64,000 bases of DNA from Dehalococcoidia bacterium (GCA_034435835.1 DAOTWF010000027.1:15725-79724), one strand, 5' to 3'. Positions 16,223 through 64,000 are shown, numbered from the stretch's first letter. Program-made: numbers and translations. Notes: a model not told the origin generated them from the letters alone.

Positions 16223-17065
16223 ATGTCCAGAAGGAAGATAGTAAGACTTTCGGATGGTGATATCAGGTTTCTGATAGAAACGGTTGCCCCCCAGTTGCTC
16301 GGCAGGCTGGATGTAATAAAGAATGATGCCCAGCTTATTGAAGGTATGCTGGATCAGGAGATAGAGAAGGTCTTTCAGAGGATGGTGCTTACGGGCGAAG
16401 AGAGGGTGATGACTTCTATTTCACCTGCTTTTCTCTTCGAAGTACTGCTGCGGAAGGCTGCTAGGGATCTTAGGACACAGAGCTGTACGATAGAGAAAAT
16501 TGGCTTTCAAAATGTGCCGGTATTCGATGCCCGAGAGGTGGTGGATTTTCTTTCTCAAGAAGGAAGTGTGGAATATCTGGCTGACATGCTTGCCTCTTTT
16601 ACCAAAATTCGGAGTTTTGCTGTAGCTGTCCGAGTGCGGAGAGGTATATGGCGGAGGTTCAGGTTCAGTGATATGGATGTTGACAGTCTAATAAAGTTTT
16701 GTGAGAGCGTGGATGATGAGCACAGGTTTGCCTTGTACAAGAGGATAGCTGACCTGTGCCTGTTTATTCTAGGCGTGTTCCCTGAATACGTGATACCCAG
16801 CTATCAAGTCGCTCCGGATATGGGTGTAGCTCGTCTTGGTGCCGGGAGGAGGTTTGCCTGGTCTGCTGAAGACTATGAGGGGGTGGGTAAACGGTTTTAC
16901 AAACTGGCTGGCTCGCACAGGGATGCGGATATTCTGGGGCTTGCTGAAGTCTTGCATCGCTTCCATGAAAAATTCAGTCTCGCCAGAAAGCCCCTTATTT
17001 ATATTTCGGAGAACTTGCTTAAGTCGAGAAAGCGGAAGCTTTTCCCCTCAATTTCGCCCAACTGA
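16223..17065 (+). CDS. Conserved-looking hypothetical protein
   Basis: Clean 280-aa ORF filling the intergenic space; motifs YLADMLASF and YKRIADLCLFILGVFPEY; no family recognised. Confidence 0.75.
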   Translation: MSRRKIVRLSDGDIRFLIETVAPQLLGRLDVIKNDAQLIEGMLDQEIEKVFQRMVLTGEERVMTSISPAFLFEVLLRKAARDLRTQSCTIEKIGFQNVPVFDAREVVDFLSQEGSVEYLADMLASFTKIRSFAVAVRVRRGIWRRFRFSDMDVDSLIKFCESVDDEHRFALYKRIADLCLFILGVFPEYVIPSYQVAPDMGVARLGAGRRFAWSAEDYEGVGKRFYKLAGSHRDADILGLAEVLHRFHEKFSLARKPLIYISENLLKSRKRKLFPSISPN

Positions 17066-17159: not shown

Positions 17160-18077
17160 ATGAGCGGTATCAGGAGGTTTTTTTCGGGGCTCTTCTGTCT
17201 GTTGCTGGTCTCTGTGCTGTCTTTATTAGGGCTTGTTACCACGCTAAATCTGACCGTACTTAATCCTGATTTTATGGTAGCTGAGCTCAAGCAGCTAGAT
17301 ATTTACTCCCAGTTGGCCAGCCAACTGGAGTCTTTTCTTCGGGGGCAAGGTATCTTGGAGCGTGATGTTGAGGTTGCGCTTTCAGGGCTTGCGCTCGAGC
17401 TAGAGCAGAAAAGTGAGGATGTTATCCGTCATATCTACAGTTCTATTGGCAAGGGCGAAACAGAAACAGCTATTTATCTCGGTGAGATAAGGCAGATAAT
17501 AAAAGATTACGCTGCTAGGGCTATGTCTCTGTCACCGGAGCTTCGAGGCGCTCCAACGGGTGATATGGAGGCTGTTATTTCAAGGATATACAGCGAGATC
17601 GATGGCATGGTGCCAGAGAGCATAATGCTCAGCGATTACATCCTAGGGACGGAAGCAGTGTCTCAACTTAACTTGATAAAGCGGATACCTGCTTATCTCC
17701 GGGACCTCGAGCGCGTGCTAATTATGCCGGCTGTGGTATTGGTGTTGTTGATCTGTTTGGTGCATTGGTGGCAGCCGAAACCCATTGCTCAGGCGCTTGG
17801 CGTTGTTTTTATCACGGTGGGTGTTGGCTCTGTAGTAGTCTCATTGTTTGGTTCTCTTGGGGATATATTGCTCGGTTTTCTCACTGTGCCTCATGGCTCT
17901 TATTCACAGCTTCAGTCAAGCATATTTCAGTTGTTCAATGATATCTTGAAGCCTATGCGCATGTATGGTTTCGGATTTGCGGGCGCCGGGATATGTTTAA
18001 TCATAGTATCTGTACTGTGGAGGACAGCGCCGGCTGGTATCCGTGCTGTGCCTGACCAGGTTGGTGGGCGAGCATAG
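17160..18077 (+). CDS. Hypothetical membrane protein
   Basis: N-terminal TM, about 150-aa loop, three C-terminal TMs. Confidence 0.7.
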   Translation: MSGIRRFFSGLFCLLLVSVLSLLGLVTTLNLTVLNPDFMVAELKQLDIYSQLASQLESFLRGQGILERDVEVALSGLALELEQKSEDVIRHIYSSIGKGETETAIYLGEIRQIIKDYAARAMSLSPELRGAPTGDMEAVISRIYSEIDGMVPESIMLSDYILGTEAVSQLNLIKRIPAYLRDLERVLIMPAVVLVLLICLVHWWQPKPIAQALGVVFITVGVGSVVVSLFGSLGDILLGFLTVPHGSYSQLQSSIFQLFNDILKPMRMYGFGFAGAGICLIIVSVLWRTAPAGIRAVPDQVGGRA

Positions 18078-55325: not shown

Positions 55326-56185
55326 TCCAGTTCTAGGCTGATATCCAGCGCTCTGGCTGAGTGGGTGAGCGCGCCTACCGATATCATGTCCACACCGGTT
55401 TCTGCTATTGCCCGAATCCTCTCAAGAGTGACCCCGCCTGAGGCTTCAACAAGGGCACGCCCTTTTATCAGTTGCACGCTGTGGCGCATGTCTCCCAGGC
55501 TCATATTGTCCAGCATGATGATGTCGGCACCAGCTTCAGCGGCTTCACGTGCCTCTTCGGGTGTTTTTACCTCTATCTCGACCTTTGTTCCCGGTGGCAC
55601 CTTGTGGCGGGTCTGAGCAATTATTTCCTTTATGTTTTTACCGCTGCGGCGCAGTACTGTCAGGTGGTTGTCCTTTATAAGGATGCCATCGCCGAGATGC
55701 ATACGGTGGTTCCTACCGCCGCCGAGCCTAACGGCGTATTTTTCCAGTAGCCGCAAGCCCGGTGTGGTCTTTCTGGTGTCGGTTATGCTGACAGGGAGCC
55801 CACTGACTGCCTGAATGTAGCGTGCTGTCTCTGTGGCGATGCCGCTCAGATGTTGCAGGAAGTTCAAAGCCAGGCGTTCGGCTTTCAACATGCTGGAGAC
55901 TCTTCCTTGCAGTCTGGCTACGACGTCTCCGGGCTTGACCTTGCCGCCGTCTTTGATGAGTAGTTCGATATGAAGTTCGGGGTCGACCCTGAGAAAGACC
56001 TCCCTTGCTATTTCGATCCCGGCGATGATGCCCTCAGCCTTGGCTAGGATGTAGGCAGTCCCACGTTCGGAATCTGGTATCAGTGAGTCAGTGGTTATGT
56101 CCCCGTGACTGAGATCCTCTTGCAAGGCTAGCTCAATAAGCTGCCCTATTTGATGGACGTCCAGACCGCCTTCCAGACTATTCAC
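55322..56185 (-). CDS. nadC: Nicotinate-nucleotide pyrophosphorylase (quinolinate phosphoribosyltransferase)
   Basis: DTRKTTPG.R..EKYAV..GGG.NHR, LIKDNH, IMLDNM, ASGG, SVGALTHS. Confidence 0.96.
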   Translation of the reverse strand: MNSLEGGLDVHQIGQLIELALQEDLSHGDITTDSLIPDSERGTAYILAKAEGIIAGIEIAREVFLRVDPELHIELLIKDGGKVKPGDVVARLQGRVSSMLKAERLALNFLQHLSGIATETARYIQAVSGLPVSITDTRKTTPGLRLLEKYAVRLGGGRNHRMHLGDGILIKDNHLTVLRRSGKNIKEIIAQTRHKVPPGTKVEIEVKTPEEAREAAEAGADIIMLDNMSLGDMRHSVQLIKGRALVEASGGVTLERIRAIAETGVDMISVGALTHSARALDISLELD

Positions 56186-56657
56186 TGCTGTCTTCTTGCA
56201 GTTCCTGCAAAATCATGTTAACACATGCGGATACTGCTTTTCTAACCGGGGCAGTGAATTCCTCACCGAAGGTGCTGACATCTGCTGCTTCGATAGCGTA
56301 GATGGTTATCTTTTGAGGCAGACGTAAGCCAAGCCTGCTGCCAAGTTCGAGGGCTGTCCTGAAGTCGATGCCGTGTGGAGAGGTAATGTGATCGGCAGTG
56401 TCGAATGCCTCGGGTGTGAGTCTGTAGATCTGCCCCGGTGTACCCCCGACTGTCTGGATGGCATCTATTATGATTGCTTGGTCATAGCCGGTGAGCAAAT
56501 CGAGCAGGACAAGCCCTGTTGTTGCCGTCTCCGCAACTGTGACATCAGGACGGCTGATTTTCTCTCTCAGCGCCGCGGCAACATAAAGCCCCGCACCGTC
56601 ATCGGTGAGCAGGGAATTGCCTATCCCCAGTATCAGTATCTTCCCTCTATCAGGCAC
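56178..56657 (-). CDS. Hydrogenase maturation endopeptidase (HyaD/HycI-like)
   Basis: ILGIGN.LLTDDGAG, IIIDA, SPHG. Confidence 0.93.
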   Translation of the reverse strand: MPDRGKILILGIGNSLLTDDGAGLYVAAALREKISRPDVTVAETATTGLVLLDLLTGYDQAIIIDAIQTVGGTPGQIYRLTPEAFDTADHITSPHGIDFRTALELGSRLGLRLPQKITIYAIEAADVSTFGEEFTAPVRKAVSACVNMILQELQEDSSE

Positions 56658-56693
56658 TAAAACAGTTCTGCTCTAAACTTCACCAAGGACACC

Positions 56694-58154
56694 TTATCTT
56701 TTTAGCCTCTCCACTACTTCGCCCTTGCTGTTATAGATAATAATCTCCATCGGTGCTTGTCCCGGTAGGGAATGAGTGGCGCAAGCAAAGCAAGGGTCAT
56801 AGGGGCGCCATGCCATCTCTATGCGGTTGAGCAACCCCTCGGTTATTTTCTTGCCCGGCTGGATAAGTGCCATGGCTGCTTTTTTGATTGACATGTTAAA
56901 TGCTGCGGAGTTGCCCACAGTGGCTACAATCAGGTTTGCCTTTTTGATCACGCCTTTCTCGTCTGTAACATAATGATGGATCAAGGTACCGCGTGGGGCT
57001 TCGACGATGCCGAAGCCCTCGTCCGGTTTAGCTGTAGGGATGGTTCGGATGTTGGGGCTGGTGATCTCAGGGTCACGGCTCAATTCCAAAAGCCTTTCGG
57101 CAGCGTAGAGGAGCTCAACAAGCCTGGCCCAATGCATAGCTAAAGTATGGTGCACCGGCTTGCTCCCAAGTGTGGAGTACATCTTCTCGTAAGCCTCCTG
57201 AGCCAGTGGTGTCGCCATGCCATCAGCAGTGTTGAGGCGGGCAAGCGGTGCCACACGGTAGACACCGCTGTCCTTACCGTCTACAAAGCCTTTCCAGCCA
57301 ATCTTCTTCAGGAAGGGGAACTTGATGTAGCTCCAGGGCTCGACGTGCTCGGCGATGTGGTCCAAGTACTCTCGTGGTGAGAACTTGGCAAACTCCTTAC
57401 CATCAGGATCCACCACCCTGACTTTGCCATCGTAGAAATTCACCTTGTTCTTGTCATCTACCAAGCCCATGTAGTAGGTGCGGTGGGTATAGGCTTCGCT
57501 CAGGATCATATCGACATATTCTTTATTCTTCAGTACGATATCGTCGAAGACTTTAAGGGAAAGCTTCGCGAATTCTACAGAATCTTTGGCAATTTGCTCT
57601 ACCTCTTTTCGTTCCTCTTCGGTGAGACCTTTGCTGATGCCCCCCGGAAGCCCGAAGACAGGATGCACAGCCCTACCGCCGAGCATGTGGATGATACGGT
57701 GGTTCTGCATTCGCGTCTTTATCACGGCTCCGCCAAGTTCCAGTCCGACCTTGGCGATGACGCCGAGGATATTGCGCTCTGCTACCGGGGCCTCGGGGCC
57801 CATGATAAAGTCTGGACCGGCGAGGATATAGAAGTGGGTGGTATGGTCGGTGACATAGAATGCACTGTAGAAAAGCTCGCGTAGCTTTTTGGCAGGACTC
57901 GGCGGGTCGACATGGAAGAGGTCATCAAGGCATTTAGTCGCTGCAATGTGGTGCGCTTCAGGGCAGACACCGCAGATACGCTGGGTAATCTGTGGCATGT
58001 CCTCAGCTAGACGCCCTTCACAGAATTTTTCGAATCCTCTCAGCTCTGGCACTTGGAAATAGACATTTTCCACACCGCCAGCATCATTGAGGAAGATTTC
58101 GATCTTGCCGTGTCCTTCCAGACGAGTGATCGGATCAATGGTGATCTTCTTCAT
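56694..58154 (-). CDS. mvhA: [NiFe]-hydrogenase large subunit, group 3c (MvhA-like)
   Basis: ITRLEGHG, RICGVC (L1), EAPRGTLIH, YDPCFACATH (L2) plus a cleavable tail. Confidence 0.95.
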   Translation of the reverse strand: MKKITIDPITRLEGHGKIEIFLNDAGGVENVYFQVPELRGFEKFCEGRLAEDMPQITQRICGVCPEAHHIAATKCLDDLFHVDPPSPAKKLRELFYSAFYVTDHTTHFYILAGPDFIMGPEAPVAERNILGVIAKVGLELGGAVIKTRMQNHRIIHMLGGRAVHPVFGLPGGISKGLTEEERKEVEQIAKDSVEFAKLSLKVFDDIVLKNKEYVDMILSEAYTHRTYYMGLVDDKNKVNFYDGKVRVVDPDGKEFAKFSPREYLDHIAEHVEPWSYIKFPFLKKIGWKGFVDGKDSGVYRVAPLARLNTADGMATPLAQEAYEKMYSTLGSKPVHHTLAMHWARLVELLYAAERLLELSRDPEITSPNIRTIPTAKPDEGFGIVEAPRGTLIHHYVTDEKGVIKKANLIVATVGNSAAFNMSIKKAAMALIQPGKKITEGLLNRIEMAWRPYDPCFACATHSLPGQAPMEIIIYNSKGEVVERLKR

Positions 58155-59110
58155 TTTATCCTAGCCCTCCTTAACAGAGAATCAGGCAGACTATATCGGT
58201 AGAAAGTGCCCACAGGGTCACAGATATCGTCGATAATTTTCTGTATCTCTTCAGGGTTGTTGGCATCGATCACCGAGGCAACTGCGCTGAGGAAGTGTGC
58301 TCCCTGGTCAATTACCCCCTCTACGGGACCGTAGCAGCCAGTGCAGGGCATGTTAGCCTGCGGACAGGGCGCGCCACAACCACCCCTGGTGGCGATGCCG
58401 GCACAGAGCAGCCCCTGCTCCAGAAGGCACACCTCGGCGTCGGGTATAATTTCGAAGGTGCGGTAGAATTTTTTCACCTTCTTTACGTCCCGCTTCCGCG
58501 GGCAGTCATCACAAACCGCCTTGACGCTGTGGCTGATTACCGTGCCTTTGGGCGGTAATTTCCCCTGAATTAGTGCTTCCAGAGCCAACCAGGTAGTTTT
58601 TTCCTCCGGCGGGCAGCCGGGGATGACGTAGTCTATCTCGACGGTCTGACGCAGGGATCTGACGGTATCGTAAAACTCGGGAATGGTGAGCTCACCCTCC
58701 GGTACCTTAAACTTGGTCTGGGGAAAGACTTTTTCCTTGTTGTCTGTAGACTGAGTTTCCAGGTAAACCTGTTTGAAAATCAGCTCTCTATTAAACATAT
58801 TGCCTAAGCCAGGGATACCGCCATTGTGAGCACAGGAGCCGTAGGCGATCATCACCTTGGACTTTTCTCGCAGCATCTTTGCCAGATGTTCCTGCTCTGA
58901 GTTCCTGATGGCGCCATTGAATAGGCAGACATCTATGCTCTTATCGGGCATTGCCTCCACGTCCTTATATTTGACGTCGATAGCCACAGGCCAGAAGACT
59001 ATATCTGCGGCTTCAGCCAGCTTGAGTATCTTGTCTCCGATCTGTAGCTGCGCGATTTCGCAGCCACCGCAACTGGCTGCCCAGTAGAGCGCTACTTTAA
59101 GTTTAGCCAT
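58151..59110 (-). CDS. mvhG: [NiFe]-hydrogenase small subunit (MvhG-like)
   Basis: SCGGCE, GSCA..GGIPG, PGCPP, CDDC, CLLEQG..C.G..TRGGC...C......C.GCYG. Confidence 0.94.
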
Positions 59111-59528
59111 GTTTTGCCTCCTTGGAGTTCTTCCCGAAAGGGCCTAAGGCTCTGACTTTTTCGGTCATCTCGTCAACGATGGCAACGAAGCGATCGCCTT
59201 CGGATGCTGACACCCAGTCAAGCCGCACGCGGTCCTCTTCGATTCCCATCTGGGCCAGCATCTTTTTGAGCAGTGGCATACGGCGCGCTGTTTTATAATT
59301 GCCCTCGACGTAGTGGCAGTCACCCGGGTGACAGCCTAGAACAAGCACGCCGTCAGCCCCCAGTTCGAAGGCTTTGAGGACAAAAGTCGGCTCCACACGG
59401 CCGCTGCACATAACCCTGATTATACGCACATTGGGCGAACATTTCATCCTGGCGGTGCCAGCTAGATCGGCTCCTCGATAGGAGCACCAGTTGCAACAAA
59501 AGCCGACTATTTTTGGTTCGAAGCTCAT
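59103..59528 (-). CDS. mvhD: MvhD/FlpD [2Fe-2S] adaptor, Cys form
   Basis: [24 protein letters not shown]; ATG overlaps the hdrA stop (ATGA). Confidence 0.95.
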
Positions 59529-61486
59529 ACTAATACCCCCTCGATTTCTGCCATTATTTCTTCGGTGGTGAAATGCTTCTGTGTGATCGCTGCGCTGGGG
59601 CAGGCGGCAACACAGGTGCCACAGCCCTTGCACAGCGCTTCGTTTATTCTCGAGACCTCTTTGTCTTCGATGAAGGTTATGGCGTTGTACGGGCAGAGGA
59701 TGTTACAGACCCTGCAGCCAGAACACTTCTCCTCATCGATTACAGCCACGGTGGCTTCAAGCTCGACCTTGCCCTTGCTGATTAGACTTAGCACTCTGGT
59801 GGCGGCGGCGGAAGCCTGCGCTACTGTATCGGGGATGTCCTTGGGACCCTGGCAGCAGCCGGCGATGAATATGCCGTCTGTCATAGTAGCTACCGGGTCA
59901 AGCTTGGGATGTCTCTCGATGAAGAAGCCGTCTGCCCCCTGGCTGATGCGGAATAACTGGGCTACCTGCTTGGCATCAGAGCGTGGCTCAAGCGCTATGC
60001 ACAGTATCACCATATCCACCGGGACGCGGATCACCTGACCGAGCAGGGTATCCTCGCCGCAGACGATGAGTTTTCCCTTCTCTTCATTGGTCAATGCCCT
60101 GTCGGTGACCTCAGCCGCCTTGCCGCGGATGAACTTAACACCCTCTTTGGACAGTCTCTCGTAGAACTCCTCGTAGCCTTTGCCGAAGCAGCGCATGTCG
60201 ATATACATCTGGTAGACATCAGCTTCGGTCTTTTCTTTAATAAGATGGGAGTACTTGAGGGCGTACATGCAGCATACTCTGGAGCAATAGCGGTGGTAGT
60301 TTTCATCTCGGCTGCCCACGCAATGGATGATGGCGACGCTCTTTGGCTCCGAGCCGTCTCTGAGAACTATCCTGCCGCCCGTAGGACCGGCAGCGTTGCA
60401 CAGCCTTTCAAACTCCAGGGCGGTGTAAACGTTGGGGTAGCGCCCGTAGCCGTATTTGACGATGGGCGTGGGGTCGAAGGGGTCATAACCGGTGGCGATT
60501 AGGATGTTGCCGACCTCAAGTTCCACAATCTTGTCCTGCTGTTCGAAGTCTATGGCGCCGGGCTCGCAGAACTTCTCACAGGCACGGCACCTACCTTTGA
60601 GGAAGTAGACGCAGTGCTCTTTATCTATCACAGGTATGTTGGGAACTGCCTGCGGGAAGGGTGTGTAGATGGCTTTCCGTTCGCCAAGCCCCAGGTCGAA
60701 TTCGCTGGGCGCCTTCCACGGGCATTTCTCCATGCAGACACCGCAGCCGTTGCACTTTTCCTCATCGACAAAGCGGGCCTTCTTGCGGACTTTGACCTTG
60801 AAGTTCCCAATGAACCCCGAGACCTCCTCAACCTCGCTGTAGGTCATCAGTGCGATATTGGGATGAGAACCGGCTGCGGTCATTTTGGGCGTCAGGATGC
60901 AGGCGGAACAGTCCAAGGTGGGGAAGGTCTTATCGAACTGGATCATGTGTCCGCCGATGCTCGGGTCCTTTTCCACCAGGTATACCTTGTGTCCGGCATC
61001 GGCGATCTCCAGGGCGGCTTGGATGCCGGCAATGCCACCGCCGACTATCAGCGTTGCCGGGTTTACCGGCACCTCTTTCGTCTCCAGAGGCTGGTGGTAG
61101 CGAACGCGTTTCACCGCAGCGCTGACCAGTGCCTTTGCCTTCTCTGTGGCTTTGTCATGGTCTTCGGTTGTCCAGGAACAGTGCTCGCGGATATTTGCCA
61201 TCTCAAAGAGATAGGGGTTCAGCCCGGCTTCCTGTACGGCGTGGCGGAAGGTGGGCTCGTGGAGGAGCGGTGAGCAGGAGGCGACCACCACCCTGTTGAG
61301 CTTTAGGTTCTTGATGTCCTCTTTTATCATGTTCTGCCCCGGGTCGGAGCACATAAACTTGTATTCTCGAGCCACCACCACCGAGTCCAGCTTTTTAGCA
61401 AATTCCACCACATGCTGTACGTCAACGGTACCAGCTATATTAGAGCCACAGTGGCATACATATACTCCGATCTTCGGTTTCTCCAT
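59525..61486 (-). CDS. hdrA: Heterodisulfide reductase subunit A-like flavoprotein (copy 2)
   Basis: [52 protein letters not shown], ferredoxin inserts. Confidence 0.96.
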
Positions 61487-61518
61487 CGCGTCTCCTCCTT
61501 TAACTTGCTGCGACCTCA

Positions 61519-62673
61519 CTATAGTGCCTCCGCGACCAATTCGGAGAGATCCTTTATTTCGATTACCTCGCTCTTGTTAGTGGTGAGCACGGCGTCGTTG
61601 AAGTTTGCCATACAGTAGGGGCAGCTCACGGCGAGAATTTCAGCCCCTACCTCAGCCACCTGTTCCAGCCTCAGCTCGGAGAATCTCTCTCCTTTCTTGG
61701 TCTCCATCCATAGCCTTCCGGCGCAGCCGCCACAGCATAGAGAGTATTCCCGGTTATCCTGCATTTCCGTGTACTCGATGCCGGGAATGCTCGATAGTAC
61801 ACGTCTGGGCTCCTCGTAAATGTTTTGGTATCTGCCAAGACAGCAAGAATCGTGGTAAGTTACCTTTTTGACCAGTGGCTTGGAAAACTTCAATTTCCCC
61901 TCCTGGATCAGCTGGTCGAGGTATTGAGAGAGATGGATTACTTCGTAGTTGCCACCAAACTCTGAGTATTCGTCTTTAAAGGTATGATAACAGTGGGGTG
62001 AGGTGACGAGGATCTTTTTCACGCCCAGTTCGTTGAATATTTTGATATTACTCTCAGCGAGCTTATGGAATAAGCTCTCGGCGCCAGCCTTGCGGATGCT
62101 CTCGCCACAGCAGAGGACGCTATTGTCCGGGATACCGAAGTCCACCTTAAGCTTTTTCAGTATATTAACCGTGGCAATGGCAGTCCTCCTGGTGGGTGGA
62201 TCATAACATTGGTAGCAACAGGGGAAGTAGAGGATCTCGGTGCCCTTGGTGAAGGTCTTGACGCCGAGGTCTTTAGCCCAGTCCATGCGTTTTTCCGGTG
62301 GCTCACCCAGAGGGTTGCCGACGGCGGAGATGTTCTTCTCTGAAATGCGCAGGGAGTGGGGCACGATGCCGGCACCGATTTCCATGATGACCCGTCTGAT
62401 AGCTCGCATCAGAAGTGGCATCTGGACGTCCCGGGGGCATCTTTTTACGCAGGCGTTGCAGGCGACACATTTCCACACCTCCTCATTCTCGAAGTCCACC
62501 ACGCCTAACTGTGCTTTATGGACGAGCTTGCGGAGTGAGAATGTGGTCACCCGGTTCCACGGGCATATTCCGGTACAGAGACCGCATTGAAAACACAGCT
62601 TGAGGGCGTCACCGCCCTCTTCTAGGATAATATCAGTGGTCTCTTTGGATGGTGTGAGCAGTTCGATTTCCAT
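61519..62673 (-). CDS. Soluble HdrD/FadF-like Fe-S oxidoreductase (2x[4Fe-4S] plus two CCG domains)
   Basis: CFQCGLCTGIC, CVACNACVKRC, CCGE...SPHC, YHDSCCLGR...CCGG...SCPYC; no TM. Confidence 0.88.
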   Translation of the reverse strand: MEIELLTPSKETTDIILEEGGDALKLCFQCGLCTGICPWNRVTTFSLRKLVHKAQLGVVDFENEEVWKCVACNACVKRCPRDVQMPLLMRAIRRVIMEIGAGIVPHSLRISEKNISAVGNPLGEPPEKRMDWAKDLGVKTFTKGTEILYFPCCYQCYDPPTRRTAIATVNILKKLKVDFGIPDNSVLCCGESIRKAGAESLFHKLAESNIKIFNELGVKKILVTSPHCYHTFKDEYSEFGGNYEVIHLSQYLDQLIQEGKLKFSKPLVKKVTYHDSCCLGRYQNIYEEPRRVLSSIPGIEYTEMQDNREYSLCCGGCAGRLWMETKKGERFSELRLEQVAEVGAEILAVSCPYCMANFNDAVLTTNKSEVIEIKDLSELVAEAL

Positions 62674-62715
62674 TTTTCACCCTTCCTTTCCTTGAGTATT
62701 AAGAAAGCGGTGGAA

Positions 62716-62744
62716 ATTATATAGTATGTCTGCAGTTCTTGCAA
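62716..62744 (-). promoter_or_regulatory. Internal sigma70 promoter for the hdrD-like-hdrA2-mvhD2-mvhGA unit
   Basis: TTGCAA-N17-TATAAT on the minus strand. Confidence 0.7.
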
Positions 62745-62831
62745 GAGCCGTGCTAGAAGGGTGGCTACAATGGAATATTGAAGACAGCGTCTTTCCCAGT
62801 TAGCCAACCGCTGAGCCGTTACTCCTATGGT

Positions 62832-63248
62832 CTATTTCGCTGGCGTATGGAGATCGAGCGGACCAAGTCTTCTTATCTGTTCGGTCATCTCACTGACGAC
62901 TGCGGCAAAGCGGTCAGCCTCTGACGCTGATACCCAGTCCAGCCTCAGCCTCTCCGGTTCGATGCCAAACTGGGAAATGAGTTTCTTCAAAAGTGGGATT
63001 CTTCTAACCTCTTTTACATTACCTTCCAGGTAATGACATTCGCCGGGATGTCAGCCGCAGACCAGGACGCCGTCTGCCCCGAGCTCAAATGCTTTTAGGA
63101 TTAGGGTGGGCTCGACACGCCCGCTGCACATGACACGGACTATGCGGATGTTAGGGGGATATTTCTTTCGGGACGTGCCAGCAAGGTCAGCGGCAGCATA
63201 AGCGCACCAGTTACACATGAAGCCTACGATTCTTGGTTCGAAACTCAT
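62832..63248 (-). CDS. mvhD: MvhD/FlpD, selenocysteine form (138 aa)
   Basis: TGA at 63051-63053 lies in [17 protein letters not shown], the position of Cys in the paralogue's GCHPGDCHY. The frame stays homologous to TAG at 62832. Confidence 0.9.
63017..63053 (-). promoter_or_regulatory. Bacterial SECIS-like element
   Basis: UGA, 15 nt, then CAUUACCU-GGA-AGGUAAUG (8-bp stem, G-containing loop); absent at the same position in the Cys paralogue. Confidence 0.75.
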
Positions 63249-64000
63249 ATCAGCACTCCTTCCAGTTCTGACATGATTTGCTCTGTGGTGAAGTGTCTAG
63301 CCGTAATGGCACCGCTGGGACAGGCTGCAGCACAGGTACCACAGCCTTTACACATAGCCTCGTTAATCACTGAGACCTTCTCATCTTCGTTGAATGAGAC
63401 AGCGTTATATGAACAGAGGGAAATACAGGTCTTACATCCTGAACACAGTTGTTTGTCGACGAAGGCGGTAGTTGGTTCGGTCTCTACGCTGCCCTTGGTG
63501 ATGATAGCCATGGCTCGTGCAGCGGCTGCTGAAGCCTGAGCAACAGTGTCAGGTATATCTTTGGGCCCCTGACAACAGCCGGCGATGAGCACACCTTCGG
63601 TGGTGGTGGCTACTGGATCAAGCTTGGGGTGTTTTTCTAGGAAGAAGCCATCCCGACTACGGCTTATGGAGAATAGCTTAGCGGTTTCGCCAGTGTCTGC
63701 CCTAGGCTCAAGGGCGACGCTCAGGATGACAAGGTCTACCGGGAGACGCCGCTGCCTGGAGATGAGTGTGTCCTCACAGACAACGATAAGCTTTCCTTGC
63801 TCTTCGGGAGTCTCGGCAACATCGGTGACCTCTCCAGCACGGCCCCTGATGAAGTTTACCCCTTCTTCCTGGAGGCGGTTGTAGAATTCTTCGTAACCTT
63901 TGCCGAAGCAGCGCAGGTCAATATACAGGTCGTAGATTATGGCGTCAGGAATTTTTTCCCTGATGATGTGGGCAAATTTTAGCGAATGCATGCAGCAAAC
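63245..64000 (-). CDS. hdrA: HdrA-like flavoprotein (copy 1), C-terminal part; 5' end outside the window
   Basis: Frame is open to the window edge ([10 protein letters not shown]...[15 protein letters not shown]...[11 protein letters not shown]...[12 protein letters not shown]); ATGA overlap with mvhD(Sec). Confidence 0.95.

Follow-up and report, generated by a model that had tools for sequence, protein, structure and literature searches.

The mvhD gene on the minus strand near the end of a 64,000-nucleotide stretch of DNA from a Dehalococcoidia bacterium (hereafter the window) very probably encodes a complete MvhD of 138 residues, in which an in-frame UGA at codon 66 is decoded as selenocysteine (Sec). 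We designate this gene mvhD(U), and its paralogue with Cys at the same position mvhD(C). The reading frame of mvhD(U) starts with an ATG at 63248, which is followed by 65 sense codons, a TGA at 63053..63051, 72 further sense codons and a TAG at 62834..62832; read-through thus yields 138 codons including UGA-66, which is the single in-frame TGA. In the ORF listing the gene is broken into two pieces, an ORF of 65 aa and, downstream, a remnant of 52 aa; the initial annotation had stated that the gene call ends at 65 aa and that the 72 codons past the TGA remain homologous. The second part of this statement is borne out by profile searches, for which Cys was put at codon 66: the 138-aa product matches the Pfam FlpD/MvhD model (PF02662) over its full length (positions 1-123 of 123; E = 2e-55). 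It also recovers the solved MvhD chains 8rvu_F (E = 3e-51) and 5odc_D (E = 1e-49). The Cys paralogue begins 3.72 kb away, at 59528. Over 135 aa it shares 71% identity with MvhD(U), and this identity is undiminished past the TGA, with G-U-HPGECHY aligning to G-C-HPGDCHY. From its sequence the protein, a member of the hydrogenase delta subunits, is predicted to serve as the [2Fe-2S] connector that joins the Mvh [NiFe]-hydrogenase to HdrA. The features of the locus are collected in Table 1.

The MvhD family has five invariant Cys positions, namely 12, 15, 41, 66 and 71 in the numbering of MvhD(U); positions 12, 15, 41 and 71 are Cys in this protein and position 66 is the UGA. Across the family, position 66 is either Cys or a stop in 216 of 217 homologues. 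A structural study described the equivalent of Cys15 as an "additional" conserved Cys that is not a ligand, and placed the equivalents of His67 and Asp70 beside the Cys pair of HdrA (PMC13580544). Both of these lie right beside residue 66. As the Cys15 equivalent is the extra, non-ligand Cys, we infer by elimination that residue 66 ligates the [2Fe-2S] cluster. Hence, where the initial annotation placed the TGA at a Cys ligand of the cluster, the alignment confirms an invariant Cys, and the ligand role follows from this elimination. In three of the 217 homologues among the compared loci a stop is also found at position 15, the second Cys of the CNWC motif. These are candidate two-Sec genes, the resulting CxxU being a motif that is listed for archaeal VhuD.

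Table 1. Features of the mvhD(U) locus; positions are those of the window unless a locus identifier is given.
Feature	Position	Strand	Basis
mvhD(U), predicted selenoprotein CDS	62832..63248	minus	translation; Pfam PF02662; paralogue identity; PDB matches
In-frame UGA, codon 66, at the family-invariant Cys of the G-C-H motif	63051..63053	minus	TGA conservation; homologue alignment
Gly65 codon GGC, just 5' of the UGA	63054..63056	minus	synonymous site invariant
Putative bacterial SECIS-type hairpin CAUUACCU-GGA-AGGUAAUG	63035..63017	minus	centroid fold; synonymous constraint; bSECIS rules
Hairpin, 5' arm	63035..63028	minus	
Hairpin, loop GGA	63027..63025	minus	
Hairpin, 3' arm	63024..63017	minus	
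hdrA(U), 3' part, clipped by the window end	63245..64000	minus	Fer4 domains; matching contigs
Putative sigma-70-like promoter TTGCAA-17-TATAAT, spacer mvhD(U)/hdrBC	62716..62744	minus	10/12 consensus match
hdrBC-like fused gene (4Fe-4S dicluster plus two CCG domains), first of the Cys-type module	61519..62673	minus	Pfam CCG/Fer4; synteny
hdrA(C), Cys-type paralogue, Cys207 in DCSAC	59525..61519	minus	Pfam; alignment with Sec-type copies
mvhD(C), Cys paralogue, TGT at 59333..59331, internal control	59103..59528	minus	homology
mvhG	58151..59110	minus	Pfam Oxidored_q6
mvhA, Cys at both Ni motifs	56694..58154	minus	Pfam NiFeSe_Hases; RICGVC, DPCFAC
hycI, maturation protease	56178..56657	minus	Pfam HycI
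mvhA with in-frame TGA, related operons	L007:11396-12853; L010:4777-6234; L013:9739-11196; L014:9828-11279; L015:3205-4407; L017:4834-6291; L191:~5844		

Downstream of the TGA, after a gap of exactly 15 nt, the sequence CATTACCT-GGA-AGGTAATG (63035..63017) forms the 8-bp hairpin with a GGA loop that had been noticed initially. This hairpin, which is what the centroid fold of the region shows, spans codons 72-78 (H-Y-L-E-G-N-V) and so lies inside the coding sequence. Its energy is -7.1 kcal/mol for the bare 19 nt, -7.8 kcal/mol in a span of 25 nt and -8.8 kcal/mol in one of 48 nt. In the bacterial SECIS consensus used by bSECISearch, the apical loop has 3-9 nt and the upper stem 4-16 bp, and either the first or the second loop nucleotide is a G, for the most part with G or U after it (PMC13188914); the consensus further asks for a UGA-to-apical-loop distance of 16-37 nt and a minimum free energy of -7.5 kcal/mol or lower (PMC13188914, 2026 review). 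The loop (3 nt) and stem (8 bp) of the mvhD(U) hairpin are within these size limits, the loop G-G-A begins with G, such that U-GGA-A fits N1-G-[G/U]-N-N2, and the distance from the UGA to the loop is 15 + 8 = 23 nt; on which side of the -7.5 kcal/mol cut-off the energy falls depends on the span that is folded (-7.1 to -8.8 kcal/mol). The matching span of mvhD(C) gives -0.1 kcal/mol, and in a 25-nt frame a different, bulged and weaker helix is possible (-5.8 kcal/mol), the loop of which is without an initial G; the Cys paralogue indeed has no such hairpin. Taken alone, the hairpin of mvhD(U) is statistically unremarkable, a 71-nt fold around it being no better than those of shuffled sequences (z = 0.18), and its weight comes from comparison across genomes rather than from folding energy. 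Rfam searches of the whole window at gathering thresholds, and of 62800..63300 at a permissive E-value, returned no family match, and no bacterial SECIS family came up for comparison. Just upstream of the UGA, RNAalifold pairs the GGC of codon 65 with G(U/C)C in alignment columns 23-25 (63036-63038), straddling codons 71 and 72, where changes from G-U to G-C are one-sided and split 13:7. This GGC may belong to the context of the UGA, or may form a short lower helix with the G(U/C)C of codon 71; such a pairing would set the UGA in a 16-nt loop beneath the main hairpin.

The comparison across genomes drew on relatives of MvhD(U) searched in one genome per species, which gave 79 loci. The closest are from Dehalococcoidia MAGs, with 88% and 86% identity. 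TGA at codon 66 and the identical 19-nt hairpin recur in 17 other Dehalococcoidia loci, which together with the window constitute a comparison set of 18 sequences; TGA at codon 66 is further found in a Desulfobacterales MAG (L061, two paralogues) and in Candidatus Frackibacter (L080, one gene). Within the Dehalococcoidia set codons 1-65 have a pN/pS of 0.104 and codons 67-131 one of 0.155, and the 65 codons downstream of the TGA contain no further stops or frameshifts. Both halves of mvhD(U) are therefore under purifying selection. This bears on the view that mvhD(U) is a pseudogene or encodes a genuine 65-residue protein, the TGA being a nonsense codon and the homology behind it in decay. The public annotation as a 65-aa CDS would be in line with such a view, but the same TGA persists in all 17 other loci despite synonymous sites that are close to saturation, the codons behind it show selection and an intact frame, and a 65-residue product would be without the invariant Cys71 and half the fold. 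We accordingly regard a pseudogene or a 65-residue protein as very unlikely.

The synonymous sites of the hairpin depart sharply from those of the remaining gene. In the 18 sequences pS is 0.03 over hairpin codons 72-77, as against 0.72-0.80, near saturation, elsewhere. The codons CAT TAC CTG GAA GGT AAT (72-77) are unchanged in all 18, whereas neighbouring invariant residues use 2-6 codons. Seven of the invariant degenerate residues (n = 65 codons) are without synonymous change; five of these seven lie in the hairpin and one more is GGC-65. Six codons drawn at random never matched the constraint of the hairpin in 200,000 draws (P < 5e-6). The Cys-type homologues, including paralogues in the same genomes, are free to vary at the hairpin codons, and the quartet CAT/TAC/GGT/AAT is present in 22 Sec-type genes against one of 78 Cys-type genes. 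RNAalifold applied to 20 sequences of this hairpin class found no compensatory pairs, because the stem pairs are all invariant; the support thus consists of suppressed synonymous change and association with the TGA, not of covariation. One MvhD orthologue of the Sec clade (L011:5865-6263) has TGC in place of the TGA, while the adjoining HdrA keeps its TGA, and here the hairpin codons are relaxed to CAC TAC CTT GAA GGT AAC. This gene looks like a recent reversion from Sec to Cys. The constrained synonymous sites, their association with TGA and their relaxation in L011 point indirectly to the hairpin being a SECIS that would be needed for read-through. Along with the conservation of the TGA and hairpin, the selection on the gene and the bSECIS-like geometry, they support the initial annotation of a selenoprotein MvhD with a SECIS element adjacent on its 3' side.

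A sequencing or assembly error, the true codon being TGC or TGT, had been named at the outset as what would undo this reading. The 65-aa product was found on contigs of five separate assemblies, four from Logan (SRR8369165, SRR7473445, SRR8371833 and SRR8369793) and one from NCBI (GCA_900118465.1), of which two are 100% and three 96-97% identical to the window, and both the TGA and the hairpin are present in all five. In conjunction with the TGA in 17 of 17 orthologous Dehalococcoidia loci, this renders an error exceedingly improbable; nothing supports it, although the assembly graph does break shortly downstream in several short-read assemblies. Four independent short-read contigs (L082-L085) stop at 63012, exactly 39 nt past the TGA, and another contig (L001) begins at 63037. 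Strain variants (GAGGTT versus GAGGCT) are the probable cause of this break just 3' of the hairpin.

An altered genetic code, in which TGA would be read as sense throughout (code 4 or 25), is scarcely conceivable. Only the in-frame TGA itself would suggest it, but 11 of the 51 genes of the window end in TGA, three of them (hdrA(U), hdrA(C) and mvhG) in this very operon, and the ends of these genes match those of their homologues. A systematic scan of the window for other TGA-interrupted frames returned only frames overlapping real genes; therefore, there is no second selenoprotein gene, nor a credible second interrupted frame, within the window, and in-frame TGAs align only with invariant Cys. 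Purifying selection past the TGA, combined with the use of TGA as an ordinary stop elsewhere, leads us to exclude both a pseudogene and a reassigned code.

We infer that the residue inserted at UGA-66 is Sec rather than any other, and that the source genome possesses SelB and tRNA-Sec (selABCD). In the predicted mechanism, SelB-GTP-Sec-tRNA(Sec) would bind the hairpin CAUUACCU-GGA-AGGUAAUG when a ribosome reaches UGA-66, and this complex would deliver Sec in competition with release factor 2, upon which translation would run 72 codons further. The hairpin appears to be written into the C-H-Y-x-x-G-N motif through fixed synonymous positions in the codons CAU, UAC, GGU and AAU. Translation of mvhD(U) is likely to be coupled to that of the upstream hdrA(U), which likewise has a predicted Sec-UGA, at the known site of HdrA.

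ARAGORN found no tRNA-Sec in the window and 25 related loci, and family scans of about 40 ORFs of the window detected no sel genes, nor did a search of the window and every locus up to L080 for motifs of SelD and SelA and for the G1 motif of GTPases. Dehalococcoidia MAGs are among the bacteria with the largest reported selenoproteomes, with 46-49 selenoproteins (PMC13326102). It is conceivable that the recoding is real but that the residue at UGA-66 is Cys or another amino acid, supplied by a SelB-dependent Cys-tRNA(UCA) (selC*/tRNA-ReC) or by near-cognate read-through when selenium is scarce. The tRNA-ReC is known to exist and to function. A hydrogenase survey scores genomes for "selC*" beside selABCD, which implies that such tRNAs occur in Sec-using anaerobes (PMC13582414). 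Against this, no Cys-tRNA(UCA) was found in the window or the loci scanned, and the Dehalococcoidia are reported to be rich in selenoproteins. Furthermore, the TGA has long been kept beside a Cys paralogue, and reversion to TGC is seen just once, in L011; this suggests that the residue encoded by TGA is not replaceable by Cys. Insertion of a residue other than Sec is hence unlikely, and Sec remains the preferred reading of UGA-66.

The gene neighborhood is consistent with this reading. The order at the locus (56178-64000, minus strand) is hdrA(U)-mvhD(U)-hdrBC-hdrA(C)-mvhD(C)-mvhG-mvhA-hycI, MvhD thus being encoded together with hdrA and mvhG/mvhA. The TGA stop of hdrA(U) overlaps the ATG of mvhD(U) in the sequence ATGA. 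Two of the short-read contigs (L082 and L084), which are 100% identical to 63012..64000, extend beyond the window into an HdrA that is split at ...LDCSA-TGA-ILTPK, and place the predicted Sec-UGA of hdrA(U) about 624 nt past the window end (~64624; L082:1293, L081:8625). This DCSA-TGA is common to all Dehalococcoidia relatives and has a conserved downstream hairpin of its own (-14.3 kcal/mol in 60 nt); gene callers cut hdrA(U) into products of 194 aa and 453 aa. This is the known Sec site of HdrA; in M. maripaludis it is Sec197, where it forms a pair with a Cys between the cluster of MvhD/VhuD and the FAD (PMC13518236). Since hdrA(U) is coupled to mvhD(U) and both have a predicted Sec-UGA, the Sec-type unit is hdrC-hdrB-hdrA(U)-mvhD(U).

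The usual order in the Sec clade is hdrC-hdrB-hdrA(U)-mvhD(U)-mvhG-mvhA-hycI, in which the Sec-type module leads straight into mvhGA. In the window, as well as in L081, L002, L003, L019, L006 and L020, a Cys-type module comprising a fused hdrBC, hdrA(C) and mvhD(C) is placed between mvhD(U) and mvhG; at L081:6578-13636 the tandem Sec-type and Cys-type modules also lie upstream of a single mvhG-mvhA-hycI. The 158-nt spacer between mvhD(U) and hdrBC (62674-62831) retains the -35 box, the -10 box and the ribosome-binding site in six related loci, the remainder being divergent. The ribosome-binding site ahead of the fused hdrBC is strong, and no terminator-like site was seen after mvhD(U). With its conserved putative promoter and ribosome-binding site, this spacer suggests that each of the two modules, Sec-type and Cys-type, can be expressed independently of the other. 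A tentative, and on balance doubtful, extension of this idea is that the locus acts as a selenium switch, whereby one MvhGA hydrogenase is coupled to a selenium-dependent or a selenium-independent Hdr core according to the supply of selenium. If true, Vhu/Vhc and HdrAu/HdrAv of Methanococcus would have a bacterial counterpart contained in a single locus. Alternatively, the two modules might serve different acceptors.

In certain related Dehalococcoidia operons (Table 1) MvhA, the large subunit of the [NiFe]-hydrogenase, is itself interrupted in frame by TGA. The codon affected is that of the second Cys in the N-terminal Ni motif (RICGV-U-PGAHH), and the C-terminal DPCxxC motif keeps its Cys residues; the equivalent position in the window is Cys64 of mvhA. 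About 17 nt beyond this TGA there is a conserved hairpin, GGCCU-CGUGUA-AGGCC. The canonical Sec site is in the C-terminal motif, as in the Asgard locus L062, and an N-terminal CXXU was previously reported in only one Group 3 hydrogenase sequence (PMC13582414). Elsewhere in the window, two adjacent ORFs on the plus strand between mutS and argJ (16223-17065, 280 aa, and 17160-18077, 305 aa) have no Pfam match at E 1e-8.

The distribution of Sec-type MvhD was surveyed further by scanning metagenome contigs for GG-N-TGA followed by the C-H-Y motif with CAC as the His codon, a pattern that excludes the hairpin solution of the present clade. At least 120 stretches matched the Sec position of the MvhD G-U-H motif. 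Of these at least 120 matches 80 were examined (loci L086-L165); genuine MvhD genes, in which TGA occupies this codon and the frame stays open behind it, make up 78 of them, for instance at L086:4737 and L088:9969. Sec at the G-U-H position of MvhD therefore appears to be widespread in metagenomes. Among the matches examined, the most frequent solution is another hairpin, UGCCACUA-UGU-UAGUGGCA, which has 8 bp, an energy of -10.1 kcal/mol and a UGA-to-loop distance of 20 nt, with its register shifted 3 nt upstream. Over all data, 59% of Sec-type genes, as against 4% of Cys-type genes, have a hairpin of bSECIS geometry with an energy of -5 kcal/mol or better, and by strict enumeration about 40% of the other Sec-type MvhD genes have no simple perfect hairpin. 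These patterns suggest that a SECIS can be encoded within a conserved peptide motif by synonymous sites alone, and in at least two registers across lineages.

Public databases present a different picture of these genes. The best full-length matches to MvhD(U) are all Cys forms of no more than 80% identity, and the Sec orthologues are deposited as a 65-aa "hydrogenase iron-sulfur subunit" (UCH43242.1 from the closed chromosome CP070645.1, and MBM3142405.1). The initial annotation had supposed that pipelines would call the gene a pseudogene; this is not so, as these public entries are shortened coding sequences. The clusters of 65-aa stubs that were looked up have up to 95 members, and some of the sequences are found on up to 89 contigs. 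Truncation at a Sec-UGA is a recognised annotation error. As the stub is deposited as a finished protein, reconstructions of the metabolism of subsurface Dehalococcoidia contain an MvhD that is broken and an HdrA that is split, within their central complex of H2/heterodisulfide electron bifurcation.

MvhD/VhuD (PF02662) and HdrA are both listed as selenoprotein families, and operons combining them are found in Deltaproteobacteria and archaea (PMC13188914, PMC9312934); mvhD(U) would thus add a member to an established kind. In the present complex the two predicted Sec residues, in the DCSA-U motif of HdrA and the G-U-H motif of MvhD, would both lie in the region of transfer that leads from MvhD's [2Fe-2S] cluster to the HdrA Cys pair and on to the FAD. 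Recent cryo-EM papers describe the mechanism of electron transfer in this MvhD-HdrA-FAD region as still unsettled (PMC13518236, PMC13580544). Dehalococcoidia with the Sec-type complex probably need selenium for it, which bears on their cultivation.

The VhuD/MvhD (FrhD) proteins of Methanococcales, Methanopyrales and Asgard archaea are likewise PF02662 [2Fe-2S] connectors, which link a hydrogenase or Fdh to HdrA (PMC13188914, PMC9312934). Their genes, too, adjoin that of an HdrA with Sec, and isoforms with Cys are found alongside. The archaeal versions have a SECIS in the 3'-UTR and are listed with the CxxU motif and up to two Sec residues, whereas mvhD(U) has one predicted Sec, at G-U-H, and an in-frame hairpin of the bacterial type. 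A bacterial operon of this kind is the deltaproteobacterial frhA-frhD-hdrA operon (plus glpC), where not only HdrA but also the homologue of MvhD/FrhD is a selenoprotein (PMC13188914). The Desulfobacterales locus L061 has the same CAUUACC...GGUAAUG hairpin as mvhD(U). The present locus differs from the deltaproteobacterial operon in that the host belongs to the Dehalococcoidia (Chloroflexota), MvhA is all-Cys, and a full Cys-type hdrBC-hdrA-mvhD module is inserted.

With bacterial SECIS elements, of which that of E. coli fdhF is the archetype, the mvhD(U) hairpin shares the intragenic stem-loop just 3' of the UGA, the small loop with G first and the spacing. It has no sequence similarity to the E. 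coli elements, and its spacer is 15 nt, while in the E. coli SECIS 11 nt are needed to the minimal upper stem. Finally, the selenium-regulated Vhu/Vhc isoenzymes of Methanococcus provide a parallel at the level of the whole system, in that Sec and Cys versions of the components for electron input and bifurcation are encoded in one genome; in the present case the two versions are instead in tandem at one locus, apparently sharing one MvhGA.
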